From NCBI GenBank assembly GCA_045614625.1, contig JAZLDE010000147.1:1-58296 (forward strand): a stretch of 58,296 bases of DNA. Reading direction: 5' to 3'. Positions 8,912 to 43,076 of this stretch are shown one piece after another. The DNA comes from Eubacteriales bacterium (lineage in GTDB: Bacteria > Bacillota > Clostridia > Oscillospirales > CAG-272). Position numbers and translations under genes: made by a program. Under the pieces are notes generated by a model that saw only the letters and a list, made by a program, of their open reading frames with translations, had not been told where the DNA came from and made no database searches. Numbering within the stretch: the first letter of the stretch is position 1; each line of letters starts with the position of its first letter.

Positions 8912-11347
8912 TTAGGAGCGCTTGGGCATTTTCTGCAGGTTCCAGATGCGCTGTGCGTACTCCTCAATGCTGCGGTCGGCGGCAAAGTGGCCGGAGGCGG
9001 CAATGTTGAGCAGCGACATGCGGTTCCACTTCTGCTTATCAGCGTAGTCGCGAATCATCTGGGCGTGCGTCGTGCGGTAAGACTCGTAGTCGGCAAGGCA
9101 CAGATAGGGGTCTGCGATGCCGTGCTCGCCCGACAAGAGGTAGGAAGCAAGGTTGGCAAAGCTTTCACCGGCAAAGCCGATGTTGAGTTGGTTGACGATG
9201 TGGGAAAGCCCGATATTGTTGGCGTAGAACTCGGTCGAACGGTAGCCGCGCAACCAGATGGATTCGACCTCGGCGGCGGTCAGGCCGAAGATATACATGT
9301 TGTCCGCACCTGCGGCAGCCTGCATTTCGACGTTCGCACCGTCCAACGTGCCGATGGTCAGCGCACCGTTCATCATGAGCTTCATACAGCCCGTGCCGCT
9401 TGCTTCCTTTCCTGCCAGCGAGATCTGTTCACTGATCTCGGCAGAGGGAATGAGCGCTTCAGCCAGGCTGACGTTGTAGTTTTCCAAAAAGACGACGTTG
9501 AGTTTTTCCTTGATTTTGGGATGGCGCTCGATGTCGGCGCTGATATAGCAGATCAGACGAATGATCTCTTTGGCCATGGCGTAGCCGGGGGCTGCCTTGG
9601 CGGCGAACATGAAGGTCTGGGGCTGCATCTCTATATCGGGATTTTCCTTGAGCTGCAGGTAAAGGCCGATGATATTCAGCGCGTTGAGCAGCTGGCGCTT
9701 GTACTCGTGCAATCTCTTGATCTGCACGTCAAAGACGGAATGGGTATCGATCAGCTGACCCGTCTTGCGATAGAGCAGATTGGAGAAGTTGATCTTGTTC
9801 TGGTGCTTGATGGCGCGCAGACGCTCGAGTACGGCGGGATCGTCGGCAAACTTAGAAAGCTCCGAGAGCTGCTCAGGCGACTTGCGATAGCCGTCACCGA
9901 TGCAATCCTCAATCAACCCGGCCAGTGCAGGGTTGGAGTAGCACAGCCAGCGGCGGTGCGCGATGCCGTTGGTGACGTTGGTGAAGCGGTCGGGATACAT
10001 ACGGTAGAAATCCTTGAAGGTGGATTCCTTGAGAATGCCGGAGTGCAGCTTGGAAACGCCGTTGATGCAATGCGAGCCGACGACGGAGAGGTTTGCCATG
10101 CGGACCTGTCCGTGACCGAGAATACTCATCTTGGAAATGCGGTCCCAGTTGCCGGGGAAGGCATCCCATGCAGCGCGGCAGAATCTTTCGTTGATTTCGC
10201 GGATGATGGTATAGATGCGAGGCAGCTTGAGGCGGAACAGATCCTCGTTCCAGGTTTCCAGTGCCTCGGGCATGACGGTGTGGTTGGTGTAGGAAACGAT
10301 ACGCTGTACCATATCCCATGCGTGATCCCAGGTGTAGAAATAATCGTCAATGAGGATGCGCATCAGTTCGGGGATGCACAGAGCAGGGTGGGTGTCGTTA
10401 ATATGGATCGCCACCTTGTCGGGTAGATTGTCCAGCGTGCCGTAGACGGCCATGTGGTCGCGGATGATGCTCTGGCAGGAAGCCGATACGAGGAAGTACT
10501 GCTGGGTCAGACGGAGCAGCTTACCCTCGGCGTGGTTGTCCGAAGGATACAGCACCTTGGAAATGATCTCTGCGTTGGTTGCGTTCTCGACGGCGCGAGC
10601 ATACTGACCCTGCGTAAACAGGCTCATGTCAAACTTCTGCGTGTCGCGAGCGCGCCACAGTCGCAGCTGGCTGACGGCATCCGAGTCACCGCCCGAGATC
10701 ATCATGTCGTAAGGAACGGCTTCGACCTCCTCGCAGTTTTCGTACAGGATCTCCAGGTGACCTTCCTTCCAAACCTCCTTGACGTGTCCCCCCAACTTAA
10801 CCTTGAAGATACGGTCGGTGCGGGGCACCAGCCAGACCTCGCCACCCGGCAACCAAATGTCGGGCAACTCGACCTGCATACCGTCTACGATTTTCTGACG
10901 GAACAGACCAAAGTCATAGCAAATGGAAAAACCGGTTGCGGGATAGCCCAGCGAGGATAGCGAGTCCATAAAGCAAGCTGCCAAGCGGCCAAGACCGCCG
11001 TTGCCAAGGCCTGCATCAGGCTCGCATTCGTACAGCTCTTCCAGATTGGAACCAAGCTCCTTGAGTGCCTCGGCGTAGCCCTCGGCCAGTCCGAGATTGC
11101 CTAGATTGGTCTTGAGCGAGCGACCAAGCAGGAATTCCATGCACATATAGTACACTCTTTTGGCGCCTGCACGGTTGACGTCCTTTTTGAACGCGCCGCG
11201 CTTGTCGGTCAGCAAGTCACGAACCGTCATCGCGGTTGCTTTATACATTTGCTCGCACGATGCTTCGGCGGCGGTGCAACCAAAGTAGCGCGACAGCTTT
11301 TCTTCCAGATTCTTTTTGATTTCTACGGGGGTGGGATTCTGATTCAT
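8912..11347 (-). CDS. glgP: Glycogen/alpha-glucan phosphorylase
   Basis: Full-length phosphorylase similarity, including the PLP-lysine region EASGTGCMKLMMNGA. The track ORF begins at a TTG (11383); the ATG at 11347 (MNQNPTP...) is preferred. Confidence 0.93.
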   Translation of the reverse strand: MNQNPTPVEIKKNLEEKLSRYFGCTAAEASCEQMYKATAMTVRDLLTDKRGAFKKDVNRAGAKRVYYMCMEFLLGRSLKTNLGNLGLAEGYAEALKELGSNLEELYECEPDAGLGNGGLGRLAACFMDSLSSLGYPATGFSICYDFGLFRQKIVDGMQVELPDIWLPGGEVWLVPRTDRIFKVKLGGHVKEVWKEGHLEILYENCEEVEAVPYDMMISGGDSDAVSQLRLWRARDTQKFDMSLFTQGQYARAVENATNAEIISKVLYPSDNHAEGKLLRLTQQYFLVSASCQSIIRDHMAVYGTLDNLPDKVAIHINDTHPALCIPELMRILIDDYFYTWDHAWDMVQRIVSYTNHTVMPEALETWNEDLFRLKLPRIYTIIREINERFCRAAWDAFPGNWDRISKMSILGHGQVRMANLSVVGSHCINGVSKLHSGILKESTFKDFYRMYPDRFTNVTNGIAHRRWLCYSNPALAGLIEDCIGDGYRKSPEQLSELSKFADDPAVLERLRAIKHQNKINFSNLLYRKTGQLIDTHSVFDVQIKRLHEYKRQLLNALNIIGLYLQLKENPDIEMQPQTFMFAAKAAPGYAMAKEIIRLICYISADIERHPKIKEKLNVVFLENYNVSLAEALIPSAEISEQISLAGKEASGTGCMKLMMNGALTIGTLDGANVEMQAAAGADNMYIFGLTAAEVESIWLRGYRSTEFYANNIGLSHIVNQLNIGFAGESFANLASYLLSGEHGIADPYLCLADYESYRTTHAQMIRDYADKQKWNRMSLLNIAASGHFAADRSIEEYAQRIWNLQKMPKRS

Positions 11348-21043: not shown

Positions 21044-22177
21044 ATGGCATACAGACACGGAGTAGAACGAAACGAGCTTTTGACGCGCGAGCTGCGCGGT
21101 CGCATTGGGCTGATCACCAACCCCTCGGGCGTGGATCAAAACCTACGGGCGACGGTCGATCTCTTACACGAGAACTATGACCTGCGCGCGCTGTACGCCC
21201 CCGAGCACGGCATCCGCGGCGATGCCCAGGCGGGCGCGCATATCGAACACGATACCGACAAAAAAACGGGTCTGCCCGTCTATTCGACCTACGGAAAAAA
21301 GGACGAGAACCCCGAGGACAAGTATCGTGATATCGACACACTGGTGTTCGATATTCAGGACGTCGGCGCGCGGTTTTATACCTATATGTACACCATGACC
21401 GAGGCGATGGAGGCGTGTGCCAAGCTGGGCAAGAGGGTCGTGGTGCTTGACCGATATAATCCGTTGGGGCTTTCTCGCATGGAAGGTACGCTGCTCGACG
21501 AGAGTTTTTCCTCGTTCGTAGGCAAGTACACGCTGGCCTCGCGCTACGGCATGACCATCGGTGAGTTTGCCCGCTACGCCAACGCGGAGAAGGGAATTGG
21601 GTGCGACTTGACCGTCATCCCCTGCGAGGGACTTGACCGCCGCGCCGATTTTCGATCGTTTTCGGTGCCGTGGGTGCTGCCCTCGCCCAATTTACCAACA
21701 TATGAGTCGGCACTTGTCTATATCGGCACGGTGCTGTTCGAGGGAACCAACGTGTCCGAGGGCAGGGGAACGACCAAGCCCTTTGAGCTGATCGGCGCTC
21801 CCTTTATCGACGGCGATGCGCTGGCGGATACCATGCGGCAGATGGATTTGCCCGGTGTCAATTTCCGCCCCGCCTGCTTCACCCCAACCTTTTCCAAGTT
21901 CGCGGGCGAGCGGTGCTACGGCGTGCAGATCCACGTCACCGACGCCGATGCCTTCGAGCCCTTCCGCACGGGGCTTTTGCTGCTTGACACTATCCGTAAA
22001 AGCTATGAGCAATTCGAGTTCCGCGCCTCGTCTGGGGAGAAATGGACGATCGATCTGATCCTTGGCACGAACGCCCTGCGACAAGACGGCTTTGACGCCG
22101 AGACCTTTATTGCCGAGGAGCAGAAAAAGGTGGAGGCGTTCAAGACGAGTGTGGAGAAGTATTTTTTGTATGAGTGA
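21044..22177 (+). CDS. DUF1343 family protein (YbbC/NamZ-like exo-beta-N-acetylmuramidase)
   Basis: IGLITNPSGVDQNL...LYAPEHGIRGD is typical of DUF1343. Confidence 0.8.
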   Translation: MAYRHGVERNELLTRELRGRIGLITNPSGVDQNLRATVDLLHENYDLRALYAPEHGIRGDAQAGAHIEHDTDKKTGLPVYSTYGKKDENPEDKYRDIDTLVFDIQDVGARFYTYMYTMTEAMEACAKLGKRVVVLDRYNPLGLSRMEGTLLDESFSSFVGKYTLASRYGMTIGEFARYANAEKGIGCDLTVIPCEGLDRRADFRSFSVPWVLPSPNLPTYESALVYIGTVLFEGTNVSEGRGTTKPFELIGAPFIDGDALADTMRQMDLPGVNFRPACFTPTFSKFAGERCYGVQIHVTDADAFEPFRTGLLLLDTIRKSYEQFEFRASSGEKWTIDLILGTNALRQDGFDAETFIAEEQKKVEAFKTSVEKYFLYE

Positions 22178-22193
22178 AAAAGGAGATGAGAAC

Positions 22194-22823
22194 ATGACAA
22201 AAAACAAAAGACTTATCTTGTGCATTTTGTGCGTAGGATTGTGCTTGATTATTTATTGCGTATCATATATTGCAAAACTGAATATTTTTGTTCTATCTCC
22301 CCAAGTCGCTAAAGCGTTCACAGGCAATGATCCGGAAACTTTTTGTTCAACTAATGGCGCAGATACGACATTTTACAGAATGTTTACTTATGCCCAAGTG
22401 AAGAAAAACGGAGATTTGATCCTGGTTATGACGGATCAGCAGATCGAGGATTGGAAGAATGGCAATTTCTATTTGCAATTGCTGCAGAAAATAGTAGGAA
22501 GTGAACGTCAAATTGTGACTGAGATTATTCCACCTACGGATCCTGTTTCGGAAATTATTTATGAAAAAGCCGACACTGTGTGCGGATATGAAATTTCAGA
22601 AGACTACACTCAGGTATATGCAGACCCCGGAGATAGTACGTTCTTATATTTTGGATTCGTTCCGCATGCGTGCTTAGCCATGCAGGTTTTGTCCGGAAAG
22701 CCGAGTGATGAAATCAGCTATACGTTTATTGAATACGATGAGGAAGGAAATATCGTAGAGCAGTTTGTTTGGCCGGATGATTTTCTTGATCAAACAGACG
22801 ATGAATCAACAAAAAACGATTAA
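22194..22823 (+). CDS. Hypothetical signal-anchored protein (AT-rich orphan)
   Basis: An ATG at 22194 follows an AAAGGAG RBS. The N-terminal hydrophobic helix is LILCILCVGLCLIIYC. I recognise no family. Confidence 0.5.
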   Translation: MTKNKRLILCILCVGLCLIIYCVSYIAKLNIFVLSPQVAKAFTGNDPETFCSTNGADTTFYRMFTYAQVKKNGDLILVMTDQQIEDWKNGNFYLQLLQKIVGSERQIVTEIIPPTDPVSEIIYEKADTVCGYEISEDYTQVYADPGDSTFLYFGFVPHACLAMQVLSGKPSDEISYTFIEYDEEGNIVEQFVWPDDFLDQTDDESTKND

Positions 22824-23233: not shown

Positions 23234-24235
23234 ATGCTTCAAGATCAAAAGGTATCATTTTCGGGCGTTCAGCCCAGCGGTAATTTGACCATCGGCAACT
23301 ATCTGGGTGCCATCCGCAATTTCTCGACGTTTTCGGAGCAGTACAAGTGCTTTTACTGTGTTGTTGACTCGCACGCTATCACAGTGCGTCAGGTTCCCGC
23401 CGATCTGCGCCGCAGAACCTACGAGACGCTGGCGCTTTACATGGCCTGCGGCCTTGATCCCGAGAAGAACACGCTGTACGTCCAGTCGCAGGTGTCGGCC
23501 CACGCAGAGCTGGCATGGATGCTTAACTGCTTTACCATGTTTGGCGAATTGTCCCGCATGACCCAGTTCAAGGACAAGAGCGCCAAGCACGCGGATAACA
23601 TCAACGCAGGTCTTTTCACTTACCCTGTCCTCATGGCATCGGACATTCTTCTGTATCAGACCGATGTCGTGCCCGTGGGTATCGACCAGAAGCAGCACGT
23701 GGAGCTGTGCCGCGACATTGCAACTCGCTTCAATTCGCTCTATCCCGACACCTTTACCATTCCTGAGCCCATCATGGCGTCCAGCGGTAAAAAGATCATG
23801 TCGCTGGCCGAGCCGACCAAAAAAATGAGCAAATCGGATGAAAACACCAATGCTGTGGTATATATTCTGGACGATAAGGACACAATAATCCGCAAGTTCA
23901 AGAGAGCCGTGACCGACTCGGACACCGTCGTGCGCTTTGCTGACGGCAAGGACGGCATCAACAACCTCATGACCATCTATTCCTGCTACACGGGCAAGGA
24001 ATTCGACGAGATCGAGCGCGAGTTTGATGGCAAGGGTTACGGTGACTTCAAGCTGGCTGTCGGTGAAGCCTGCGCCGATGCGCTTGCTCCCGTTCAGGCG
24101 CGTTTCCGTGAGCTGATGGCAGACAAGGCATATCTCGAGGAGATCATGAAGAAGGGTGCCGCTGAAGCATCCTACTATGCCCGCAAGACGCTGTCCAAGG
24201 TTCAGCGCAAGCTGGGCTTCGTTCAGCTCAAGTAA
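23234..24235 (+). CDS. trpS: Tryptophan--tRNA ligase
   Basis: GVQPSGNLTIGNYLGA (HIGH region) and KMSKS motifs are present. Confidence 0.95.
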   Translation: MLQDQKVSFSGVQPSGNLTIGNYLGAIRNFSTFSEQYKCFYCVVDSHAITVRQVPADLRRRTYETLALYMACGLDPEKNTLYVQSQVSAHAELAWMLNCFTMFGELSRMTQFKDKSAKHADNINAGLFTYPVLMASDILLYQTDVVPVGIDQKQHVELCRDIATRFNSLYPDTFTIPEPIMASSGKKIMSLAEPTKKMSKSDENTNAVVYILDDKDTIIRKFKRAVTDSDTVVRFADGKDGINNLMTIYSCYTGKEFDEIEREFDGKGYGDFKLAVGEACADALAPVQARFRELMADKAYLEEIMKKGAAEASYYARKTLSKVQRKLGFVQLK

Positions 24236-28417: not shown

Positions 28418-28424
28418 AAATCAA

Positions 28425-28456
28425 GGTCACACGATATTGTACGTGTGACCTTTTTT
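28425..28456 (+). terminator. Rho-independent terminator, copy 1 of a duplicated hairpin
   Basis: GGTCACACG-atattgta-CGTGTGACC followed by TTTTTT. Confidence 0.7.
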
Positions 28457-28588: not shown

Positions 28589-28617
28589 TTGACAGATTGA
28601 ACAACACGCTGTATAAT
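28589..28617 (+). promoter_or_regulatory. Consensus sigma-70 promoter, copy A of a duplicated 46-nt promoter/operator block (28580-28625)
   Basis: TTGACA-17 nt-TATAAT. The block is 41/46 identical to 35181-35226 by hand alignment. Confidence 0.6.
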
Positions 28618-28741: not shown

Positions 28742-30022
28742 ATGAGCGAAGGCACGACGTATGAAGTGCAGTCTCAGGAGTTGGAAGCAACTTCTGAAAA
28801 TCCCATCGTAACTCAAGAGCCGGATGGCATCATAGCTGAGTCCTCGATGGAAAACCAAGACGGAGCGGAATTGGAAAAATCAGATTCCGGATCGTCCAAG
28901 AAAATTGCGTGGAAAAGCGTATGGACGAAGATCTTGGCATTTATCCAAACCAACATATTCACTTCCATGACCTGCAAGATCTCATTGCTTGTGTTGGAGG
29001 CTCTTATGTTACTGCTTTGCGGCATCCAGCTTGTAAAGTGGTGCTTGTCAATCAAAGATACGTACATGAATTATTGGGACGCAATTCGAACGTTTGATAT
29101 TGTCAATATCGTCACGATGGTTCTAATGTTGATTTTTGCAATCACGCTGTTCGCTAAGGTGATTGAAGGTATCGTCGGCATGATTAAGAAGGGACGAGAG
29201 GCCAGCTTTGCATCGGTTGCTACGCTGTTTGCTTTTGCCATCTTCTCCATGTTTATGACTCATCTGTTTGACGGAAAGGAACTTTTGATTTCGTCGTTTG
29301 CTTATGCACCGATGCTCAAAGCGCTTGCATGGATTGTGGGGATATACACCGTGATCAGATTGCTGTTCAAGGACTTTGGTGCACGAGTCTGGTCGGTCTT
29401 CTTCAGCATTGGCGGTATCATTCTCGCCATTGTGATGTTTATGCAGAACGTGGGTGATTTTGCTTTGATCACTTTTGAGACCCTCGGTGAATCGGTTTCG
29501 TTTTCTTTCTCGGAGCTGAATGTAATTGAATTTTTCAAGATCCTTTTCTTTGATGGCAGTTTGACGGATGCCAACGGGGCGGAGCTCTTGCTTATCGCCG
29601 AATTTGCTCTCTCTGATCTCGGTATCGGTGAGATGGGCCTGTTGCTTTGTACGTTGATGCAGATTATTGCAATGGTGGTTGCGGACTTGTTGCCCTATGC
29701 CGCGCTGTCGCTGATGGGATATTTCCTGTACGGCTTGACTTGCAGAAATTACGTTCAGTATTATCAGCTGCGCGCCGCTCAAAAGGTGGCGACCACCATG
29801 CTGGTGATCTCCGTGATGTCGATGGCTTCAACGATCGCCTTGAGCGTATTGGCAAGCAGAGCAGGGGGACTGACGATTACAGTTGATTACGTTAGAGCAA
29901 CCTTGACGATTGTCCTGGACGTCGCTATGATCGTTGTGACCGCATTGCCGTGGAAGTTCTACAATATCACCTACAACCGTCATTTCGCGGAATATAAGAA
30001 GAATGGAGGAGACTACGTATAA
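28742..30022 (+). CDS. Hypothetical polytopic membrane protein (426 aa) with an acidic N-terminal tail
   Basis: An AAAGGAG RBS precedes the ATG. There are about 8-9 hydrophobic helices and no recognisable family. The stop overlaps the next gene's ATG (TAATG). Confidence 0.7.
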   Translation: MSEGTTYEVQSQELEATSENPIVTQEPDGIIAESSMENQDGAELEKSDSGSSKKIAWKSVWTKILAFIQTNIFTSMTCKISLLVLEALMLLLCGIQLVKWCLSIKDTYMNYWDAIRTFDIVNIVTMVLMLIFAITLFAKVIEGIVGMIKKGREASFASVATLFAFAIFSMFMTHLFDGKELLISSFAYAPMLKALAWIVGIYTVIRLLFKDFGARVWSVFFSIGGIILAIVMFMQNVGDFALITFETLGESVSFSFSELNVIEFFKILFFDGSLTDANGAELLLIAEFALSDLGIGEMGLLLCTLMQIIAMVVADLLPYAALSLMGYFLYGLTCRNYVQYYQLRAAQKVATTMLVISVMSMASTIALSVLASRAGGLTITVDYVRATLTIVLDVAMIVVTALPWKFYNITYNRHFAEYKKNGGDYV

Positions 30023-32049
30023 TGGCACTGTTACAATGTGAAATGTGTTGCGGCGAGCTTGAAATATCCCCCGACAAGTCCGTCGGCGTATGTAAATATT
30101 GCGGTTCAACGTTTACGATTCCCAAAGAGATCGAGAAAAAGGGAAATCTGTTCAACCGCGCCAATTACCTCAGACAAAATTGTAATTTCGATAAGGCAAT
30201 CGGCGTATACGAGTCTATTCTGGCGGAAAACTGCGAGGATGCGGACGCGCTGTGGGGCCTGGTGCTCTGCCGCTATGGTATTGAGTTCGTAGAAGATCCC
30301 AAAACGGGCAGCCGTATCCCCACCTGCCACAGAGCCAGCCGTACGTCCATTCTTCTGGACCCCGATTTCAAGGCTGCACTGAATTTTGCGGATGCGGAAA
30401 AGGCAGCGGTATATAAAGAAAACGCAACGCGCATCGACCAGATTCAAAAAGCGATTTTGAGTTTGTCCGACACGCAGGAAAAATACGAGGTCTTCATCTG
30501 CTATAAGGAGACGGACGAGAATGGTGAGCGTACGATCGATAGCGTTTTGGCGCAGGAGCTGTACAATGAGCTGAAAAAAGAAAAGATCCGCACCTTTTTT
30601 GCAAGAAAAACGCTGGAGGGAAAGGTCGGCTCCAGCTACGAGCCTATCATTTATTCTGCCCTGACCAGCGCAAACGTTATGATCGTTCTGGGTACCAAGC
30701 CCGAATACTTTGAGGCAACTTGGGTCAAGAACGAATGGAGCAGATATCTGGATTTCATGCAGGACAGTAGTGATAAGCATCTGATCCCTGCGTACAAGGG
30801 CATGTCGGCTTATCAGCTTCCCGAAGAGTTCGCAGCGATTCAGGCGGTCGATATGTCGCGCATCGGCTTTATGCAGGATTTGTGCGACGGTGTCAAAAAG
30901 CTGCTTCGTAAAAATGAAACCGAGCAGAATAATGGTTCCACCATTTCCAAGGAGAGCTTGTATTCACGCGCAATGGTCTTTTTGGGCAATCGTGAGTTCT
31001 ATAAGGCAGTCGATTACTTTGAAAAGGTACTGGATATTGACCCGCAGTATGCTCGTGCGTATTGGGGACAGCTGTTGGCTTCCTATCAGTGCGTAACCAA
31101 TAATGAGCTGATCAACTGTACCGCGGACGACTGGACTGAGGACGCCAGACTGAACAACGCGCTGCAATTTGCCAACCCCGAGGAAAAAGCCATCTATGAG
31201 GATACGCTGGTGAAGCGTACGGCCAACTTCAAAAAGCTGGCAAACGCAGCGCTTGAGAGTAAAGATTACGCGAAGTGCATTGGCTGGTGTGACAAATTTA
31301 TCAAGCAGAATTCCGGCGACGGAAGCGTTTGGTGGATTCGTCTGCTGGCGGTTCACAATTCTTGCAATTCCAACGAACTGTATCAGCATTGCTTGAAAGA
31401 GGTAGTGTCCATTCTTGATATGCCCGAGTACAAATATGCGCTGGAATATTCCATTCAGGAAGAGAGCGCGATGTACGAAAAGACGGCGCAAAAGATTGAG
31501 CGTGCCGTGCTTGAAAAGCGCAGATCCCTTGTCTACGACGATTGCCACGCGTTTATGTGCGCATCGATCGAATCGATCAAACGCAGAAGACAGGACGGTG
31601 TTTCGGGACAGTGGCGCAACTACGAAGCGGAAGCTGCCGCTTTCGCAACGCTGCGCTCTTATAACGGCAAATTCTGTAGAAACAATATTTTTGCTATGTT
31701 GATCCAGCTGATGCTTTGGGGCATTTGTGCCTTCTTCACGGCCATGATTGCGGCTGATGGCGACGAAACCACGTTCCGTACGGCGTTTTTGACAGTGTTC
31801 GGTTTGGCAGTAGGAATTGCTTGGATCGTTAAGCTTTCCAAGTATTCGCACAAGTCCAAGAGAATTCCTTATTTGATGAAGGAATGTGAAAACATAGGTC
31901 GAAGACTGGAAGGCGACAAGGAAAACGTTGCATACGCCAACGCCCGCGAGGCCAAGGCTGAAAAGCTGCTGGAGGAATTTCTGGCGGATCCCTCGATTTC
32001 CGTGGAGGATATTGAGAAAAAGCGAGCCGAATTTGAAGCAATACTTTGA
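30022..32049 (+). CDS. Zn-ribbon / TPR-like / TIR domain protein with a C-terminal TM hairpin (675 aa)
   Basis: An N-terminal CEMCC...CKYCG ribbon is present. The TIR_2-like block is YEVFICYKETDENG...ANVMIVLGTKPEYFEATWVKNEWSRYL. TPR-like helices flank it. Two TM helices lie at about aa 556-605. Confidence 0.8.
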   Translation: MALLQCEMCCGELEISPDKSVGVCKYCGSTFTIPKEIEKKGNLFNRANYLRQNCNFDKAIGVYESILAENCEDADALWGLVLCRYGIEFVEDPKTGSRIPTCHRASRTSILLDPDFKAALNFADAEKAAVYKENATRIDQIQKAILSLSDTQEKYEVFICYKETDENGERTIDSVLAQELYNELKKEKIRTFFARKTLEGKVGSSYEPIIYSALTSANVMIVLGTKPEYFEATWVKNEWSRYLDFMQDSSDKHLIPAYKGMSAYQLPEEFAAIQAVDMSRIGFMQDLCDGVKKLLRKNETEQNNGSTISKESLYSRAMVFLGNREFYKAVDYFEKVLDIDPQYARAYWGQLLASYQCVTNNELINCTADDWTEDARLNNALQFANPEEKAIYEDTLVKRTANFKKLANAALESKDYAKCIGWCDKFIKQNSGDGSVWWIRLLAVHNSCNSNELYQHCLKEVVSILDMPEYKYALEYSIQEESAMYEKTAQKIERAVLEKRRSLVYDDCHAFMCASIESIKRRRQDGVSGQWRNYEAEAAAFATLRSYNGKFCRNNIFAMLIQLMLWGICAFFTAMIAADGDETTFRTAFLTVFGLAVGIAWIVKLSKYSHKSKRIPYLMKECENIGRRLEGDKENVAYANAREAKAEKLLEEFLADPSISVEDIEKKRAEFEAIL

Positions 32050-32061
32050 TAAACACCAAAA

Positions 32062-32093
32062 GGTCACACGGCGTAAGTCGTGTGACCTTTTTT
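32062..32093 (+). terminator. Rho-independent terminator, copy 2 of the duplicated hairpin
   Basis: GGTCACACG-gcgtaagt-CGTGTGACC followed by TTTTTT. The stem is identical to the one at 28425-28450. Confidence 0.7.
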
Positions 32094-35541: not shown

Positions 35542-37299
35542 ATGGCTAATTTTACAATTGAATGTCCGAAGTGCGGAAGTATTAACGCAGCTTCTACGTC
35601 GCTGTTCGCAAAAAAAATGATCAAGTGTGGTACTTGCCACACGGAAATTGACGTCAAGGCCAATCGCTTGACCTCGAAGATCTGCCCTCATTGCCATAAA
35701 ACGTTTGTGTATGATCGCGCGAAGAAAAGCCATCGCGACTGCCCCTCTTGCGGCAGAAAGATCGATGCGGCACAGATTGCGACCGGTAAATACAAGTACG
35801 TAACGCTCAACTGCCCTCAGTGTGCATGCGCTATTGAAGTGGATGAAACGAAAGACACATACACCTGTCCCGTTTGCGACCATGAGCTGGACGTAAAGAA
35901 GGAAATGAGCAAGCAGGCGCTGGTGAACGATACGGGTATCAGTGTGATCCAATACGAGGGTGATAACTCCACCTTTGTTTGGAAGCATCCGATCGAGGAT
36001 TTTAATCTTGGCTCACAGCTGATTGTTCATGAATCTCAAGAGGCGGTCTTCTTCTTGAACGGACAGGCTCTGGATCTGTTCGGTCCCGGCCGTTATACCT
36101 TGGATACGGAAAATCTTCCGATCCTCAAAAAGGTATATAATCTTCCCGAGGGCTCGCAGACCCCCTTCCATGCAGAGGTCTATTATATCAATAAGACGAC
36201 GCAGATGGGTATGAAGTGGGGAACCGATTCCCGCGTCAGATTTGTCGATCCCAAGACGGGCATTCCGTTAGACATCGGTGCATCGGGCGAGCTGAACATT
36301 TGCGTCGAGGATTCCCGCAAGTTGCTGAACAAGCTGGTTGGCACGACGAGCGGATTGACCAACAAGGATGTGCTTTGCGCTACCTCGGATGCCGATGGTA
36401 ACGTTCACAGAACGCTGCAGAGCTATTTCCGTGCTCCGCTGGTTACAACAGTCAAGTCCTACCTTGCCACCGTTATCCGCGAGCGCCAGTTGAATATCTT
36501 TGAGTTGGATGCTCACTTGAACGATATCTCCCGCGATCTGAGAGACAAGATCTCGCCACAGTTTGAGGAATACGGCTTGTCGATTCCCGAGTTCTACGTC
36601 ATGCGCATCGGCCTGCCCGAAGATGACGAAAACCTCAGAAGCATCAAGAGACTGATCTCCGAGGCATATCTGGGTGTTCGCGAAGAGGAAGTCAAGAGCA
36701 GCATCGCAGAGGCTGCTCGCCAGAGAAAGATCATTGAGGCACAGACCGAAGCTCAACTTGAGGCAATTCGTGCACAGGGTGCGGCAGAAGCACAGCGCGC
36801 CGTTGGCTTGGCAGAGGCTGATGTCATGAGAGCTAAGGGTTATTCTCAGAAGGACGTGCTGGATGCAGAGGTTCAGAAGGCATATGCCGAGGGCATGGGC
36901 AATCTGGGCAGCGTCGGTGGCAACGGCGGCAGCGCCGGTAGCGGATTTGCGACGGATCTGGTTGGCATGATGGCCGGCATGAAGATGGCAGAGACCATGA
37001 TTGGCAAGATGGACGGTGTGATGGCCGGCGGCGCAGCTGTGGCTCCCAAAACCGAGGCTCCTTCTGCGGCAAGCTGGACCTGCTCTTGCGGTGAAACGGG
37101 CAATACTGGAAAATTCTGCATGAACTGCGGCAGTGCAAAACCGGAACTTTGGACTTGCTCTTGCGGTCATGCGGGCAATAAGGGTAAATTCTGTGAGGAA
37201 TGCGGCAGCCCGCGTGTTGCCCCCTCTTGGGATTGTGAGTGCGGTCAAAAGGGAAATACCGGCAAATGCTGCCCTGAATGCGGCGCAAAGCGTCCTTAA
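35542..37299 (+). CDS. SPFH (Band_7_1, YdjI/COG4260-like) protein with three N-terminal and three C-terminal zinc ribbons (585 aa)
   Basis: The SPFH core reads LIVHESQEAVFFLNGQALDLFGPGRYTLDTENLPIL...KWGT...EEYGLSIPEFYVMRIGLPED. A coiled Ala/Gln/Glu segment follows. The 3x CxxC-x(15-17)-CxxC units are N-terminal, and the 3x WxCxCG-x5-GKxCxxCG units are C-terminal. Confidence 0.85.
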   Translation: MANFTIECPKCGSINAASTSLFAKKMIKCGTCHTEIDVKANRLTSKICPHCHKTFVYDRAKKSHRDCPSCGRKIDAAQIATGKYKYVTLNCPQCACAIEVDETKDTYTCPVCDHELDVKKEMSKQALVNDTGISVIQYEGDNSTFVWKHPIEDFNLGSQLIVHESQEAVFFLNGQALDLFGPGRYTLDTENLPILKKVYNLPEGSQTPFHAEVYYINKTTQMGMKWGTDSRVRFVDPKTGIPLDIGASGELNICVEDSRKLLNKLVGTTSGLTNKDVLCATSDADGNVHRTLQSYFRAPLVTTVKSYLATVIRERQLNIFELDAHLNDISRDLRDKISPQFEEYGLSIPEFYVMRIGLPEDDENLRSIKRLISEAYLGVREEEVKSSIAEAARQRKIIEAQTEAQLEAIRAQGAAEAQRAVGLAEADVMRAKGYSQKDVLDAEVQKAYAEGMGNLGSVGGNGGSAGSGFATDLVGMMAGMKMAETMIGKMDGVMAGGAAVAPKTEAPSAASWTCSCGETGNTGKFCMNCGSAKPELWTCSCGHAGNKGKFCEECGSPRVAPSWDCECGQKGNTGKCCPECGAKRP

Positions 37300-37327: not shown

Positions 37328-38047
37328 ATGGCACAGAAAAAAGAAAAATTATTTGGATTGCTCTGGGCGATTCTGTTTCTGTTGTATAACGGTGTCGTTG
37401 CGGCGGTTTTAATGATGTCCGATCTTGCTGCTTTAACCCCTTCGTTCTGGGTGGCTTTGGTATTTGCTGAAATTTCGCTTTTGGCACTGTTGGTTACGTT
37501 GCTGGCGCTTGGAAAAACGCTCACCGTACTCAGAGACTGGTTCTTTGGCTTCCCGATCCTTCGTCATTGTGCGCTGTACCTACTACTTACGATGGTTGCT
37601 TCCGGTTTGTTTATGGGCTTCCAGGATCGCGTTGTGTGGGGCATTGTGTTGGCAGTGCTGCTGCTGTTGCTGGCGGTGTACTTGCTGTTCGCACTCTCCT
37701 GCCTGATCGCCAAGCATACGGTTCAGGATATCGATGCTGGGATCAAGGAGAAGCGTCTTTTCATTGATTTGCTGCGTGTTGATGCCGAAATGCTTTGCGA
37801 ATACTGTGAGGATGCTGAGGCAAAGAAATCGTTTTCGAAGTATGCTGAAGCCGTTCGCTTCAGCGATCCCATGAGCAATGAAGCGCTGTTTGAACTGGAA
37901 AAGGAGATTCAGTTTGAAACCTCGAATGCCATGGATGCACTCAAGCAGGGCAATTTGTCGGATGCGCTGATTCATTGCGATCAGGCATCGAAGTTGCTTG
38001 CCGAGAGAAACAAAAAGTGCAAGGCTCTTAAGGGTCTGCGCGAATAA
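37328..38047 (+). CDS. Hypothetical membrane protein (239 aa; about 4 TM helices plus a helical cytoplasmic tail)
   Basis: An AAGGAG RBS is present. Hydrophobic helices cover aa 8-135, followed by a charged helical C-terminus. I recognise no family. Confidence 0.65.
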   Translation: MAQKKEKLFGLLWAILFLLYNGVVAAVLMMSDLAALTPSFWVALVFAEISLLALLVTLLALGKTLTVLRDWFFGFPILRHCALYLLLTMVASGLFMGFQDRVVWGIVLAVLLLLLAVYLLFALSCLIAKHTVQDIDAGIKEKRLFIDLLRVDAEMLCEYCEDAEAKKSFSKYAEAVRFSDPMSNEALFELEKEIQFETSNAMDALKQGNLSDALIHCDQASKLLAERNKKCKALKGLRE

Positions 38048-38095: not shown

Positions 38096-38136
38096 GCTGA
38101 TCATTTTAAGCCTTGAACGGCCGTTTCCAATGGAAT

Positions 38137-38165
38137 TTGACAATTCCTTGCTTGTCGTGTATAAT
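38137..38165 (+). promoter_or_regulatory. Consensus sigma-70 promoter of the sigma-fusion gene
   Basis: TTGACA-17 nt-TATAAT. Confidence 0.55.
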
Positions 38166-38262
38166 AAAAACGAAAAAATTCCATTCCCCCCAACCTTGTC
38201 GCCCTTTTTGCCGTCTTATAGACAGCAACTTGCAAGATGCACGACAAAGAAAGGAAAATTTT

Positions 38263-41200
38263 ATGGCAAAGCTGAAGTATTTGGAGCACACGGACGAGAT
38301 ACTGGTGGCCCTGACGCTGTCGGGAGATCAGGATGCCTACGAGGCGTTGGTCGCGCGATACGAGAGGTCGGTGCTGGCTACCGCACGCCGTATCACGCAC
38401 GACGAATATCTGGCCGAGGATGCCTCGCAGGAGGCATTCGTGTCGGCGTGGATCAAGCTGGACTGTCTGCGCGAGCCCGCCCGTTTTGGCGCGTGGGTGC
38501 GCCGCATTGCCAAAAACTGTGCCGTCAATATCGTCACCCGTCTGCGCGAGTACGTCAGCTACGATGTGCTGGAAAATGCCGTTCATGCAGGCAACTGCGA
38601 CATTGCCGAGGAGAACGAGGACGAGCAAGGAGAGTATATTGCGCTACTACACGAGAGCATCGGCAAGTTACCCGCAAGAGTGCGCGAGATCATCACCCTT
38701 CATTATTTTGAGGGACTGTCCGTTGCCGATATTGCGACGCGACTTGGACTTGCTGTGGGCACGGTCAAGTGGCAGCTACACGACGGCAGAGAGCGCATCC
38801 GAAAAGAAATGGGTGTTATGGAAAAGAAAGTGGATAAAACGCTGGTCGAGCGCGTCATGAAGGAAGTAGAGGAGCTCAAGTTGTGGGGGCTCAAAAACGA
38901 TAAGACGGGCTTTTCCGAGGCGTATGAGAAAACGCTCAAGGCGGTGGAGGAGCTGCCCGAGTGTGGGGAAAAGGATCACGCCATGGCCGACGTGCTCATG
39001 CGGGGCTTTTGGTGGCTGCCCGGGAAGAGAAACGACGAGCTGCTTGCCCGCATCAAAGAATACGCGCTCAAAGGACACAACGACGAGGTCATGGAGAGCG
39101 TATGCGCGGCCGAGGATTCAAAAATGTGGGGCGATCGCCGCATCCCATGGATACGCGACACGCAGATCCCTTACCTTGAGAAGCATGGTTTTGTTAAGGC
39201 GTTGGGCAGAGAATGGTTTTGGTTGGGGCATGCGTATTTCAGAAAAGGGCAGACTCACGAGGGCTTTGCCGCCCTTGACAAGGTGTTGGAGATCTTGACC
39301 CCAAAAGAGGTATACTATGCCAACGCGCTGTCTGCGATACGGATCGAACGGATGCATCAAAATAAGCAGATGCAGGGCAGAGAGGAAAAATGGTATACCA
39401 TGTGCGGGGACGGCGCGCATTACCGCATCCTTGACGGCGAGCTCCGCTGCTGGAGCCGGCCGGGATATAGTGTCGGACAGCTGAGAAACGTGGTGGACGG
39501 TCAAAATATTTTCAGCCATGCTTGCCGCTGTGATAACCGATTTTTTATTCCTAATGCCGCCGTGGGGGATACGATCACGGATCAGGATTGTACGCTGACC
39601 TTCGTCGCAAAGGGCGAAACGGTAAAGACGCCGTGCGGCACGTTTGATGGCTGTGAGATGTGGGAGATCGTGAGCGAGAGTGAGATCTGCCAGACCTGGT
39701 ATGCCGATGGCGTGGGTATCGTCAAGCAGCGTATGAACACGCAGGGCGAATGGTCGGAGCGGTTGCTTAAACACTACCAAATCGTTGGCGGACAGGGGCG
39801 GATTCCCTGTGCTGCGGGCAACGTGTGGGAATACGTTGGGCATGAGGATGCGCAATACATCACGTCGGACGTGAGGTATGAGATGGTGTACAGCGACAAG
39901 GAGGGCGTCACGCTTTCGGGCTTCTTCGCCGTTGAGCGCTTGAAATATGACGAGAACAGCTGGAGCGACATGGTGCTCCAAATGCGCAGTGATTTCACAA
40001 AGATAAGCGAAGCCGGATGGGCACAGATGGTGGACGTTTCCCATGCCGTCGATCGCGCCGAGGCACTGGCCAAAACGCCCTACGAGAAGGCCTACAGCCG
40101 CGCGGCGTGTGACGTTATGCGAAGAATTTTGTCCACCGACAAAGAGATGAATCCCAAACGCACGGTCACGGGACATTGGAATGTGTTTGACGTTAAGCGC
40201 TTGACGCGGGAAAAGGGAAAGCTCCGCGAGATCTGGAATCATTACGGCACCTGCTCGTTTGCCTGGACGTGCATCGATCACAACGATGATAAGGTAGTGA
40301 TGTTCAATGACGTCTATGGCTTTTTGCAGGAAGGCGCAAACTGCCTTTGGTCGGATGATTGGAAGGACGGCTATGCCAAAACGATCGAATTTCAGCGCCA
40401 TGGATTCGTTAATCGGACACAGATCACATGCCGAAGCGTTGGACGAGTAAGTACCAAGGCGGGCGTATTTGACGATTGCCTTGAGGTTACACTGGAAATT
40501 CAAAATCCGGAAAATCGTAGCAATTATCGCTGCGGCAAAAAGACGTATACCTTTGCCCCGGGCGTGGGTATCGTCCGCTTCGTGAGCGAAGACCCAAGAA
40601 ATCATGTGACGCACGAGCTGGCAAGCTACGTCGGTACGGGCGAAGGCTATATGCCTATGCTTGATGGCATGGATCGTCGCTTTGAGGCGATCGGATTGAC
40701 GGGCGGCTACATCAGCGCTGTGGACTATGCCGTTCGTAGGCGCGGGGACGGAAGCCTTTGCCTGATCGAGGATCGCTGCGGCATCCGCGTACTACCGCCC
40801 TACGATGAGAACGATTGGCACAGCATGGTGATATATATGGGAGAGCGTGCCTTTGGCAGAAAGAATGGCGAAGCGCATTTTTACGACGTTTCGCATCTGA
40901 TGGAGCGCTGTCAAGCGCTTGCCAAAACGCCTTATGAAAAGGCACATACAAGGCTTTCCTGCGGCAGTATGCGCCGTATTCTCGAAACCGATGCCAAGTA
41001 CAATCCCGAGCGCACGCACAGCGGGCATATGGACGGATTCTGCGTTCGGTATATAGAGGAGAAGACGGGGCGCGTGGATCTTTTGGAGCAGGAGAATGAT
41101 GCGTTTGAAAACTGGAATATGCACGGTACGGGAGACTGGGGCGCGCCCATGTTCTTCAACGACGTCTACGGCATCTGGGCAGATGCTGCAAACGGCCTTT

Positions 41201-41655
41201 GGAACGAGGTGATCAGGCCAGGTGTGACGATCACGCTGGAGCACAAGCGCCACGGCTACGACGTGACCACAGAGCTTTCCTGCCGCGAGGTCGGCAGCGT
41301 CACCACAGCAGTGGATACCTTTATGAACTGTATCGAGGTAGCAGTTGAGATTAAGGGAATGCCGTATGAGATCTGCTTCCATAACGGCACCAAAAAGTTC
41401 TACTTTGCCCCCGGTGTGGGTATGATCCGCACGGTGCAGGATCACAAGGATCACACGCTGCAGGGCATTTACGATCTGGTGGCCTATGAAGGCACGGGAG
41501 AGGGCTACATGCCGCTTTGCGAGGGCATGACCCGTCGGTACGAGGCGCAGTTTATGCGCGAGGGCTATATTGCCGCGGCCGAGTACGCCATTGAGCGCGA
41601 TAGCGAGGGCAAGCTCTGCCTGATCGAGGACAGATGCGGAATCAAGAAATTATAA
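38263..41655 (+). CDS. ECF-type sigma-70 family factor fused to a ~900-aa non-membrane C-terminal extension (1130 aa)
   Basis: Region 2 (DASQEAFVSAWIKL...FGAWVRRIAKNCAVN) and region 4 (LPARVREIITLHYFEGLSVADIATRLGLAVGTVKWQLHDGR) are present. The ATG at 38263 follows AAGAAAGGAAAA. A helical segment is followed by a tandemly duplicated ~285-aa module. Confidence 0.8.
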   Translation: MAKLKYLEHTDEILVALTLSGDQDAYEALVARYERSVLATARRITHDEYLAEDASQEAFVSAWIKLDCLREPARFGAWVRRIAKNCAVNIVTRLREYVSYDVLENAVHAGNCDIAEENEDEQGEYIALLHESIGKLPARVREIITLHYFEGLSVADIATRLGLAVGTVKWQLHDGRERIRKEMGVMEKKVDKTLVERVMKEVEELKLWGLKNDKTGFSEAYEKTLKAVEELPECGEKDHAMADVLMRGFWWLPGKRNDELLARIKEYALKGHNDEVMESVCAAEDSKMWGDRRIPWIRDTQIPYLEKHGFVKALGREWFWLGHAYFRKGQTHEGFAALDKVLEILTPKEVYYANALSAIRIERMHQNKQMQGREEKWYTMCGDGAHYRILDGELRCWSRPGYSVGQLRNVVDGQNIFSHACRCDNRFFIPNAAVGDTITDQDCTLTFVAKGETVKTPCGTFDGCEMWEIVSESEICQTWYADGVGIVKQRMNTQGEWSERLLKHYQIVGGQGRIPCAAGNVWEYVGHEDAQYITSDVRYEMVYSDKEGVTLSGFFAVERLKYDENSWSDMVLQMRSDFTKISEAGWAQMVDVSHAVDRAEALAKTPYEKAYSRAACDVMRRILSTDKEMNPKRTVTGHWNVFDVKRLTREKGKLREIWNHYGTCSFAWTCIDHNDDKVVMFNDVYGFLQEGANCLWSDDWKDGYAKTIEFQRHGFVNRTQITCRSVGRVSTKAGVFDDCLEVTLEIQNPENRSNYRCGKKTYTFAPGVGIVRFVSEDPRNHVTHELASYVGTGEGYMPMLDGMDRRFEAIGLTGGYISAVDYAVRRRGDGSLCLIEDRCGIRVLPPYDENDWHSMVIYMGERAFGRKNGEAHFYDVSHLMERCQALAKTPYEKAHTRLSCGSMRRILETDAKYNPERTHSGHMDGFCVRYIEEKTGRVDLLEQENDAFENWNMHGTGDWGAPMFFNDVYGIWADAANGLWNEVIRPGVTITLEHKRHGYDVTTELSCREVGSVTTAVDTFMNCIEVAVEIKGMPYEICFHNGTKKFYFAPGVGMIRTVQDHKDHTLQGIYDLVAYEGTGEGYMPLCEGMTRRYEAQFMREGYIAAAEYAIERDSEGKLCLIEDRCGIKKL

Positions 41656-41705: not shown

Positions 41706-43076
41706 TCAGTTGATCGGCACGTCGCCGTCGGTGCAGTGAACGACGGTAATGGGAGTATCTTTATTCCAACTCCACGCGGGTTCGGAATATTTGTTGATGG
41801 CGTTCCATTGTGCCATAGTTCCTTGGAAAGTAATACTTGTCAATTTGCTACAATTACTAAACGCCAATAGACTGATTTCTGTAACGCTCTCAGGAATCGT
41901 AACGCTCGATAAGTTGGAGCAATTCCAAAAGGCGTTCATGCCGATCATTGTAACACCGCCCGGAATGACGATACTTGTCAAATCTGCACAGTTACAGAAT
42001 GCGCGAATGTCGATGATGGTGATCTCCTCGGGAATAACGCTTGTTTTACAGCCAAGGATCAGGATGTTACGCTTCTTTTGGATCAGACAATTTCCTTGAC
42101 TGTAATAGGCTGGATTGTTTTCTTCAACAATAATACTTGTTAAATTGTTGCAATCACGGAACGCGTGATCGCCAATGTACGTCACACTGCCGGATATGAA
42201 GAGGGTTGTCAATCCCGAGCAGCGAAAGAACGCTCCTTCACCGATGGATGTCACGCTGTTGGGAATGGAAATGCTTGTCAGACTAGTGCATTGATGAAAG
42301 GCGTTGCTGTCAATGGTTGTCACACTGTCGGGAATGACGATGCTTTTCAGAGCAAAGCAAGCCTCGAACGTTTTTTCATTGATCGCTGTCACACGGCTGG
42401 GAAGGGAAATGCTTGTTAGAGCGTTGCAACGGCTGAATGCCTCAGGTCCGATGAAGGTCACACTATCAGGGATGGAGATGCTTGTCAAGGCAGAGCAACC
42501 CGAAAATGCAGAGGACCGAATAGAGGTAACGCCATTGGGGATGACAATGTTTGTCAAAGAGGTGCAATTTCTGAACGCGTTTTCCCCAATCAATGATACA
42601 CTGTCGGGAATGATAATGTTTTTCAAGGCGGTGCAATCGGAGAATGTGCCATAGTCAATGATTGTCACGCTGTCGGGAATATTGATGCTGATCAAACCGG
42701 TGCAACCGGAAAATGCGAGGCTTTTAATGCTCGTTACGCTATCCGGAATCGTAATACTGGTTAAACCGGTGCAACTGCCGAACGCAAAGCGGCCAATACT
42801 GGTAACACTGTCGGGAATGGTGATACTTGTCAAATCGGAACAACCGGAAAATGCGAGATTTCCAATAGCTGTAACCGCTTTTCCGTTGTATTCGGCGGGA
42901 ATTACAATATCTGTACCTTGATAAGTGCCAACGCCGACAACAGTGTACGTTTCTCCAACTTGTTCGTATGCCAGTTCTCCGTCGTCGATTGGTGTGTTTG
43001 TAGGAGTGCAGGCCAATACGAGGTTCATCAGTGTAAATGCCAAAAGAAAGATAAGCAAGATTTTGAGAACTTTCAT
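41706..43076 (-). CDS. BspA-type leucine-rich-repeat (LRR_5) surface lipoprotein
   Basis: Lipobox signal MKVLKILLIFLLAFTLMNLVLAC. About 15-17 tandem ~23-aa repeats of the form IPDSVTSIGxxAFxxCTxLTSI. Confidence 0.85.
   Translation of the reverse strand: MKVLKILLIFLLAFTLMNLVLACTPTNTPIDDGELAYEQVGETYTVVGVGTYQGTDIVIPAEYNGKAVTAIGNLAFSGCSDLTSITIPDSVTSIGRFAFGSCTGLTSITIPDSVTSIKSLAFSGCTGLISINIPDSVTIIDYGTFSDCTALKNIIIPDSVSLIGENAFRNCTSLTNIVIPNGVTSIRSSAFSGCSALTSISIPDSVTFIGPEAFSRCNALTSISLPSRVTAINEKTFEACFALKSIVIPDSVTTIDSNAFHQCTSLTSISIPNSVTSIGEGAFFRCSGLTTLFISGSVTYIGDHAFRDCNNLTSIIVEENNPAYYSQGNCLIQKKRNILILGCKTSVIPEEITIIDIRAFCNCADLTSIVIPGGVTMIGMNAFWNCSNLSSVTIPESVTEISLLAFSNCSKLTSITFQGTMAQWNAINKYSEPAWSWNKDTPITVVHCTDGDVPIN

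Follow-up and report, generated by a model that had tools for sequence, protein, structure and literature searches.

A TIR protein of Clostridia, predicted to be membrane-anchored, that keeps the residues required for NAD+ cleavage

TIR domains are common to the innate immunity of animals, plants and bacteria, and the characterised bacterial TIR systems are, to our knowledge, all cytosolic and sense intracellular events. A gene in contig JAZLDE010000147.1 of a Eubacteriales bacterium (GenBank assembly GCA_045614625.1) raises the question of whether a bacterial TIR domain could work at the membrane, and whether it would do so as an enzyme. The whole stretch analysed, here called the window, comprises 58,296 nucleotides, and the gene encodes a 675-amino-acid protein in which a TIR domain lies between TPR-like helices and is followed by a hydrophobic hairpin. 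An exact database look-up of this protein sequence returned no record; by BLASTP, one family representative (P0001) is 100% identical, and its 3.9-kb contig carries the same pair of genes, those for the TIR protein and for the polytopic membrane protein encoded directly upstream. Sequence comparison indicates a genuine TIR protein, probably at the membrane, that keeps the residues required for NAD+ cleavage; its enzyme activity is a prediction.

The assignment of the domain rests on profile and structural matches. Residues 157–280 match the Pfam family TIR_2 (PF13676, E = 2.7e-11, 44.5 bits, where the gathering score is 28), and the family TIR (PF01582) matches slightly under its cutoff (E = 4e-4). 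An AlphaFold2 (AF2) model of the TIR domain alone was confident (pLDDT 90.5, pTM 0.87); in a model of the whole protein the domain has the elements βA 157–160, αA 172–186, βB 191–193, αB 203–216, βC 219–224, αC 233–248, βD 253–258 and αE 283–294. In a Foldseek search of the PDB, the top 35 matches to the TIR-only model (E ≤ 1e-3) were all TIR structures. The best was the MAL filament 5uzb (E = 1.3e-5), and the others included RPV1, Roq1, SARM1 (6o0u, 6o0q), BtTir, AbTir (7uxu, TMt 0.76), MyD88 and SPARTA; matches reached TM 0.6–0.76 and probability 1.0 at just 12–23% identity. We used the TIR-only model because the whole-protein search returned mostly TPR proteins, with MyD88 first appearing at rank 46. 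These results bear out a preliminary description of this DNA, made from its letters, that had recognised a bacterial TIR_2 domain here. The peptide that it quoted is present within 30484–30906 (residues 155–295), but the quoted string stops at residue 243, not 295.

The same description had pointed to a glutamate in the position that is catalytic in NADases of this fold. E238 is encoded by GAA at 30733–30735, within the motif W234-V-K-N-E238-W at the start of helix αC. phmmer and a family profile aligned ATWVKNEW to SSWCLDEL of AtTIR (3jrn), placing E238 on the catalytic Glu, and hhalign against what we take to be the sequence of the human SARM1 TIR domain set WVKNEW on WVHKEI, with E238 equivalent to E642, W234 to W638 and G203 to G601. 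When PDB sequences were searched with the family profile, only two TIR matches appeared even at E ≤ 10, to AtTIR and to a TLR15/TLR2 chimera, and neither SARM1 nor AbTir could be aligned by this route. All 20 full-length orthologues compared and 82 of 82 homologues (35–74% identity) have E238. Also without exception in these 82 sequences are W234, V235, N237, W239 and R241 in αC; F158, C160, Y161, K162, E163, R170 and D173 in βA and the AA loop; and L198, G203, Y206, E207 and P208 in the BB loop and αB. Across representatives of clusters at 50% identity, WV[KR]NEW recurs in 140 of 143, and on these alignments conservation of the W234–E238 motif exceeds chance by far. The SARM1 NAD-binding pocket is formed by elements of the AA loop, the BB loop and the αC region, and its BB loop has the consensus E(R/K)LEAG (PMC7075850). 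The invariant residues of the window protein, on βA and the AA loop, the BB loop and αB, and the start of αC, correspond to these pocket elements.

The remaining architecture suggests that this domain is held at the inner face of the membrane. Kyte–Doolittle hydropathy marks hydrophobic segments at residues 554–579 and 584–607, and the AF2 model places one membrane helix at 556–578 and a second from 582 onward, in agreement with the hairpin that had been proposed at about 31687–31836 (residue 556 corresponds to nucleotide 31687). Basic segments flank the hairpin, before the first transmembrane (TM) helix and after the second (KLSKYSHKSKR). There is no signal peptide at the N terminus of the TIR protein, which is a four-Cys zinc ribbon. 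The prediction is an N-in/C-in topology that puts the TIR domain in the cytoplasm. Pairwise identity between orthologues is 81% in the zinc-ribbon/TPR segment and 79% in the TIR domain, 38% in the stalk that leads to the membrane and 29% in the hairpin, which orthologues keep solely as a hydrophobic feature.

In a model of the whole protein built from an 82-sequence alignment (mean pLDDT 86.6, pTM 0.44), the zinc ribbon forms β-hairpins at residues 3–32; three of its cysteines (C9, C24 and C27) are invariant in the 82 sequences and C6 is kept in at least 90%. Between the first TPR-like helices and the TIR domain lie a conserved β-hairpin (87–102) and helices 114–151, and after the TIR domain a disordered linker (298–307) leads to helices 310–476. 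The second membrane helix runs on from residue 582 as a cytoplasmic helix to 655, and a last helix spans 661–674. Pfam TPR models match at residues 45–78 and 311–343, on both sides of the TIR domain, as had been described.

To place this protein we used its first 360 residues as a query, which retrieved 3,905 cluster representatives (50% identity, E ≤ 1e-30). The module nearly always occupies residues 1 to about 360 of proteins that range from 448 to 1895 amino acids, and across the family no segment is better conserved than the TIR domain (61% identity to paralogues, compared with 24% in the block that follows). The window protein carries the roughly 360-residue N-terminal module, with the motifs CxxC...CxxC, LCRYGIE, FICYKE and WV[KR]NEW, at an identity of about 50% or more. 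Among the 143 representatives, 100 have a single TM helix after the module, 8 have two, 9 three or more and 26 none. In paralogues, the 20 residues that precede the TM helix contain 7–10 lysines or arginines, against 0–3 after it, an asymmetry that implies an N-in/C-out topology for single-pass members. Their C-terminal parts vary and include BspA-type leucine-rich repeats (LRR_5) with Listeria–Bacteroides repeats (Flg_new), DUF6273, RCC1-like propellers and further TPRs, and once 4Fe-4S domains; P0161, P0188 and P0243, from outside the window, each combine TIR, a single TM helix and extracellular BspA-type LRR_5 with Listeria–Bacteroides repeats. In 26 of 76 species-representative loci (L011–L086), two to four copies of the module stand in tandem with differing C-terminal halves. 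Such arrays lie next to an SPFH gene at, for example, L020 1832–15079, L064 2927–15212 and L074 7349–19763. A phage origin was rejected because only 3 loci of the family were found among 2.9 million viral contigs.

From these comparisons, the window protein is a hairpin-anchored branch, lacking an ectodomain, of a very large and unstudied family of Clostridia. In the library searched, we found no paper that describes this TIR/SPFH/BspA/transmembrane architecture in Clostridia. The layout had been called unusual; across some 3,900 clusters a TPR-flanked, membrane-anchored TIR domain proves to be the rule, and the rarer form is a hairpin that replaces the single pass and outer domain.

The TIR protein is encoded together with a candidate partner. 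The stop codon of the gene for a polytopic membrane protein of about eight TM helices (the 8-TM protein) overlaps the TIR start codon by 1 nt (TAATG), a consensus promoter precedes this gene, and two intrinsic terminators with an identical 9-bp stem (GGTCACACG/CGTGTGACC) bracket the pair; this stem is found at no other place in the 58 kb. The downstream stem shows a compensatory base-pair change in a related strain (L092). The promoter, the overlapping stop and start codons and the terminators together define a two-gene transcription unit. Its G+C content is 0.47–0.49 against about 0.55 around it, and G+C at third codon positions (GC3) is 0.59 against 0.66–0.75; the twin terminators and the low G+C and GC3 of the enclosed DNA suggest an inserted cassette. 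The 125-nt 5′ untranslated region has no Rfam match and a fold z-score of −0.65, and the idea that it holds a leader RNA or riboswitch was rejected. The 8-TM protein has no match in Pfam, NCBIfam or PADLOC, and a word-indexed search of 5.8 billion proteins returned only six relatives. It diverges quickly, at 38–39% identity where the TIR proteins of the same contigs share 68–71%.

The pairing holds beyond the window. Full-length relatives of the TIR protein (53–74% identity; one is named 'TIR domain-containing protein [Oscillospiraceae bacterium]' at NCBI) belong to uncultured Clostridia of gut and rumen, and in every orthologue locus examined (L001–L010 and L089–L092) a homologue of the 8-TM protein is encoded directly upstream of the hairpin-type TIR gene. 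Wherever the flanks are long enough to tell, the window excepted, a Ser/Thr kinase gene, often with a PP2C phosphatase gene, comes before the pair, and a gene for a protein of about 350 amino acids with Band_7_1 and a double zinc ribbon (DZR) comes directly after it, often with another PP2C gene and one for an FHA-ABC transporter beyond. These kinases share with the TIR protein the design of a cytoplasmic domain, a TM hairpin and a cytoplasmic tail. Searches of an orthologue-locus kinase against PADLOC and NCBIfam gave strong matches, to generic kinases only. Same-strand clusters of this kind span L001 3848–14504, L002 4782–15579, L005 4086–11157 and L089 4044–11133, in the order PP2C, Ser/Thr kinase, 8-TM/TIR pair, Band_7_1-DZR and often PP2C, FHA-ABC ATPase and ABC-2 permease. 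L005 1–4102 and L089 1–4047 hold WXG100 genes, two proteins without a Pfam match, DUF4176 and a radical-SAM gene; all of these lie directly upstream of the PP2C–kinase–TIR cluster and on its strand, which may point to a connection with type VII secretion cargo.

A second pair of genes in the window recurs with the family. An SPFH protein of 585 amino acids, with three CxxC zinc ribbons at each end and no TM helix, is encoded from 3.5 kb downstream of the TIR gene, with the gene for a protein of about four TM helices (the 4-TM protein) directly 3′ of it. The GC3 of these two genes (0.57–0.60) is like that of the TIR unit and unlike that of the flanking genes. Homologues of this SPFH protein are encoded beside TIR-module genes in 45 of the 76 species-representative loci, and in 30 of the 35 that extend over at least 15 kb; in 45 of 46 cases the two genes share a strand, and 33 of the 46 SPFH genes have a 4-TM gene directly after them. 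In the window the SPFH and 4-TM genes lie within about 10 kb of the TIR gene on the same strand, here not directly adjacent to it. Gene association of this kind makes the SPFH and 4-TM proteins likely functional partners of the TIR protein. The 4-TM protein shares 34% and 27% identity with its equivalents in L087 and L088, respectively. An apparent similarity between its tail and the C-terminal tail of the kinases was not significant and was dropped. In L087, a 184-amino-acid open reading frame (ORF; 9445–9999) between the 4-TM gene and a TIR–RCC1 gene matches the HEPN family pEK499_p136 (E = 2.9e-5, slightly below cutoff) and has an R-x4-H motif, with GmrSD and a serine recombinase nearby; the L088 cassette is adjoined by an integrase and two RelB/ParE pairs.

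How might such a protein act? Known TIR NADases are turned on by induced oligomerisation, and by analogy with them clustering in the membrane is the best-supported mechanism; activation by oligomerisation at the membrane, as the preliminary description had suggested, is plausible. The explanation that accounts best for the locus as a whole, to which we would give an even chance, is that the protein is a cytoplasm-facing membrane TIR that is clustered by a signal and cleaves NAD+ at the W234/E238 site. The 8-TM partner, or in paralogues the outer domain, would sense a membrane or surface event. The TIR modules would then cluster in the plane of the membrane, possibly within an SPFH assembly by analogy with YdjI/SamI, and TIR–TIR contacts through the BB loop would complete the active site around W234 and E238 and allow NAD+ to be cleaved. 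The outcome could be NAD+ depletion or a signal derived from ADP-ribose (ADPR), and the purpose might be defence against phages or competitors, or envelope-stress signalling.

The nearest counterparts for the proposed chemistry are the NAD+-cleaving TIR domains of SARM1, AbTir/BtTir, RPV1/RUN1, Roq1, L6 and SPARTA TIR-APAZ, which share with the window protein the fold, the W-x3-E motif at the start of αC and a similar L-E-x-G signature in the BB loop. Their oligomerisation switch is a further likeness, since the membrane anchor of the window protein would favour oligomerisation. Unlike them, the window TIR domain sits inside a zinc-ribbon/TPR module on a TM hairpin, lacks ARM/SAM, NB-ARC, Argonaute or known coiled-coil partner domains, and has an activity that is only predicted. 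For the proposed assembly the counterpart is YdjI/SamI of Bacillus subtilis, a Band_7-family SPFH protein that membrane proteins recruit to an envelope-stress sensor complex (PMC8581546; bioRxiv 10.64898/2026.02.06.704340). The PspA–YdjGHI (SamGHI) system likewise encodes a soluble SPFH protein beside small membrane proteins thought to recruit it, and YdjG, like the window TIR protein, has a zinc ribbon at its start and membrane at its end. It differs in that YdjGHI lacks a TIR domain and that no PspA was seen among the annotated neighbours of the cassette; the window SPFH protein, by its match to Pfam Band_7_1, may be related to YdjI.

Several observations weigh against NAD+ cleavage by a signal-clustered membrane TIR. 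The glutamate is present in over 70% of TIR domains overall, and in more than 90% of those of TLR1/2/6/10, for which no NADase activity has been reported (PMC7075850). The residue is necessary for NADase competence and compatible with it, yet insufficient to prove it, and the earlier prediction of an enzymatically competent domain from this residue does not follow. The top Foldseek match of the TIR-only model is a non-enzymatic filament, that of MAL, and the MyD88, TRIF and TRAM filaments score on par with TIR enzymes; in this search, the ranking fails to split enzymatic from scaffold TIR domains. The profile that aligned the motif with AtTIR also puts it on WCQYEL of the TLR15/TLR2 TIR. At the level of the locus, PBP1A, TspO and helix-turn-helix (HTH) genes intervene between the TIR unit and the SPFH pair, the kinase and phosphatase seen at other orthologue loci are missing, no mobile-element or known defence genes were found in the 58-kb window, which is core chromosome, and no ADPR-sensing effector (SLOG, Macro, SAVED or STING) lies near the TIR gene. 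PADLOC and NCBIfam returned only sub-threshold matches for the TIR protein, and none for the 8-TM, SPFH and 4-TM proteins.

Much of this evidence would also suit a TIR domain that assembles rather than cleaves. The window protein might use its TIR domain as a non-enzymatic assembly module, as TLR, MAL and MyD88 do, and scaffold a membrane or envelope-stress complex with the SPFH protein; most orthologue complexes would add the hairpin-anchored Ser/Thr kinase, PP2C phosphatases and the FHA-ABC transporter, and the conserved glutamate and tryptophan would be structural or lie in an interface. We consider this rather unlikely, while taking it seriously: the structural matches to adaptor filaments and the frequency of the glutamate in non-enzymatic TLR TIR domains fit it, as do the gene order of the orthologue loci (PP2C, Pkinase, polytopic protein, TIR, Band_7_1-DZR, often then PP2C and FHA-ABC), the hairpin-and-tail design shared by the kinases of these loci, the precedent of YdjI/SamI, which membrane proteins bring into an envelope-stress sensor complex, and the position of the window unit next to PBP1A in the core chromosome. 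What tells against it is that invariance spans all the pocket elements (AA loop, BB loop and W-x3-E), beyond any one surface, that the TIR domain of the window is fully conserved in a unit without kinase or phosphatase, and that we know of no bacterial TIR domain acting as a pure scaffold within its own cell.

If the TIR domain does cleave NAD+, its product might act elsewhere, as in Thoeris, with a diffusible ADPR-derived signal for a nearby effector: the 8-TM protein, or the SPFH/4-TM pair as a membrane disruptor. Thoeris ThsB is likewise a bacterial TIR_2 protein with the conserved glutamate, the 8-TM gene is translationally coupled to the TIR gene, and membrane-spanning effectors are frequent in recently described Thoeris types (bioRxiv 10.64898/2025.12.03.692087). 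The TIR domain has a weak profile similarity to the type III protein ThcB4 (NCBIfam E = 1.8e-6) and, as the sole PADLOC match of the protein, to the candidate PDC-S66 (E = 1.4e-4); the ThcB4 match, however, reaches 27 bits against a cutoff of 220. Neither a ThsA-like effector nor any signal-binding domain (SLOG, Macro or similar) was found among the 8-TM, PBP1A, TspO, HTH, SPFH and 4-TM neighbours, and no partner fits the effector models of PADLOC or NCBIfam. Unlike ThsB, the TIR protein is multi-domain, core-chromosomal and itself membrane-anchored, in a family fused to sensor-like domains. The family is nearly absent from viral contigs, and the gene here lies outside any defence island; we regard a Thoeris-like system as improbable. 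Least likely of all is a TIR effector that is secreted or delivered from the surface onto animal host cells, like TcpB/BtpA or TcpC. The organisms live as commensals in gut and rumen, and TcpB (4lqd) is among the Foldseek matches, but the protein is an integral membrane protein without a signal peptide, its zinc ribbon and positive-inside pattern put the TIR domain in the cytoplasm, and the WXG100 genes near two orthologue loci are not conserved family-wide. The predicted topology thus makes host-directed secretion very unlikely.

For the family at large, a more far-reaching version of membrane clustering can be put forward tentatively. Many paralogues resemble Toll-like receptors in joining a cytoplasmic TIR domain through one TM helix to outer LRRs (BspA-type) or other repeats, and they may be 'inverted Toll-like receptors', in which a cytoplasmic zinc-ribbon/TPR/TIR module and one TM helix carry hypervariable outer domains (BspA-type LRR, RCC1 propeller or DUF6273), in tandem arrays beside an SPFH scaffold. 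In this family the TIR domain is N-terminal (N-in/C-out, hence inverted), the LRRs belong to the LRR_5 type of bacteria, and the window protein has no ectodomain, just an outer loop of eight residues, and does not share the Toll-like receptor architecture. The resemblance is architectural only, with no evidence for common descent of the whole protein. If the proposal holds, gut and rumen Clostridia would use these proteins to sense phage adsorption, contact with competitors or host and glycan cues, and would signal through TIR clustering and NAD+ chemistry; the window protein would be a variant whose outer domain was lost, with the separate, fast-evolving 8-TM protein as sensor.

On its own, a TIR domain with this glutamate is only mildly surprising: public databases already annotate the domain, and TIR domains have the glutamate by default. 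Its context raises the interest: a huge, uncharacterised family of membrane TIR proteins, an inverted layout reminiscent of Toll-like receptors, a conserved SPFH partner and, here, a minimal two-gene variant. With thousands of membrane TIR proteins in dominant gut Clostridia, many of them bearing extracellular LRR or propeller domains and with a flotillin-like partner, the family would bring TIR signalling in bacteria to the cell surface and would form a striking architectural parallel to Toll-like receptors. Current catalogues of defence systems do not contain it. The two-gene unit of 8-TM protein and hairpin TIR protein offers a compact, cloneable entry to the question of a membrane-clustering NADase.

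Table 1. Positions in the window of the TIR gene, its parts and the associated elements
Feature	Position	Strand	Basis or remark
Upstream intrinsic terminator, stem GGTCACACG/CGTGTGACC	28423..28452	+	3′ of HTH gene
Promoter, sigma-70 type, TTGACA-N17-TATAAT	28589..28617	+	12/12 consensus; kept in related-strain contig L092
426-aa polytopic membrane protein, ~8 TM, acidic N-terminal tail	28742..30022	+	ORF and hydropathy
TIR-protein gene, 675 aa plus stop	30022..32049	+	ORF call, Pfam, homologues, AF2 model
Zinc ribbon, N-terminal, four Cys (C6, C9, C24, C27)	30037..30105	+	Conservation and model
TPR-like helices, N-terminal, residues 37–84	30130..30273	+	Pfam TPR_14/TPR_16 at 45–84; model helices 37–84
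TIR domain, residues 154–297	30481..30912	+	Pfam TIR_2, AF2 model, Foldseek
BB-loop region R195-K-T-L-E-G-K-V-G203	30604..30630	+	L198, G203 invariant
W234-V-K-N-E238 motif, start of helix αC	30721..30735	+	Includes catalytic-position Glu, GAA at 30733–30735
Second TPR/helical block, residues 308–478	30943..31455	+	Pfam TPR_1/TPR_2 at 311–343; model helices 310–476
Long juxtamembrane 'stalk' helix, residues 479–552	31456..31677	+	One model helix 479–546
Transmembrane hairpin: TM1 556–578, outer loop DGDETTFR (8 residues), TM2 582–604	31687..31833	+	Hydropathy and model
C-terminal cytoplasmic helical tail, residues 605–675	31834..32046	+	Begins with basic KLSKYSHKSKR
Downstream intrinsic terminator of two-gene unit	32058..32091	+	Stem identical to upstream one
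SPFH protein, 585 aa, Band_7_1 at residues 153–363	35542..37299	+	Pfam E = 3e-42
239-aa protein, ~4 TM, cytoplasmic helical tail	37328..38047	+	Directly 3′ of SPFH gene

The wider setting of these genes is ordinary. The window holds feoB, peptidases, zapA, glycogen genes, ABC transporters, namZ, PBP1A, TspO and rpoB, together with a class I (Trp/Tyr-type) tRNA synthetase and a class-V aminotransferase with a dehydrogenase (serC/serA-like). A defence island or mobile element was considered and rejected, the neighbours being ordinary core chromosome genes; a core chromosome without mobile or defence genes does not favour a classic defence island. Downstream of the SPFH pair, an ORF of 1180 amino acids (38113–41655) fuses an extracytoplasmic function (ECF)-type sigma factor (regions 2 and 4, residues ~79–233) to a long C-terminal region, which has an apparent internal duplication (for example 'AKTPYEKAYSRAACDVMRRIL' and 'AKTPYEKAHTRLSCGSMRRIL') and whose only other match is DUF3108-like. 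After it, the minus strand encodes a BspA-type LRR_5 protein that stands alone and whose gene has an unusually low GC3 (0.52; 41706–43076). A further ORF of 253 amino acids, of low G+C (GC3 0.41) and without a Pfam match, lies on the plus strand at 22062–22823, between namZ and the tRNA synthetase gene (23234–24235).

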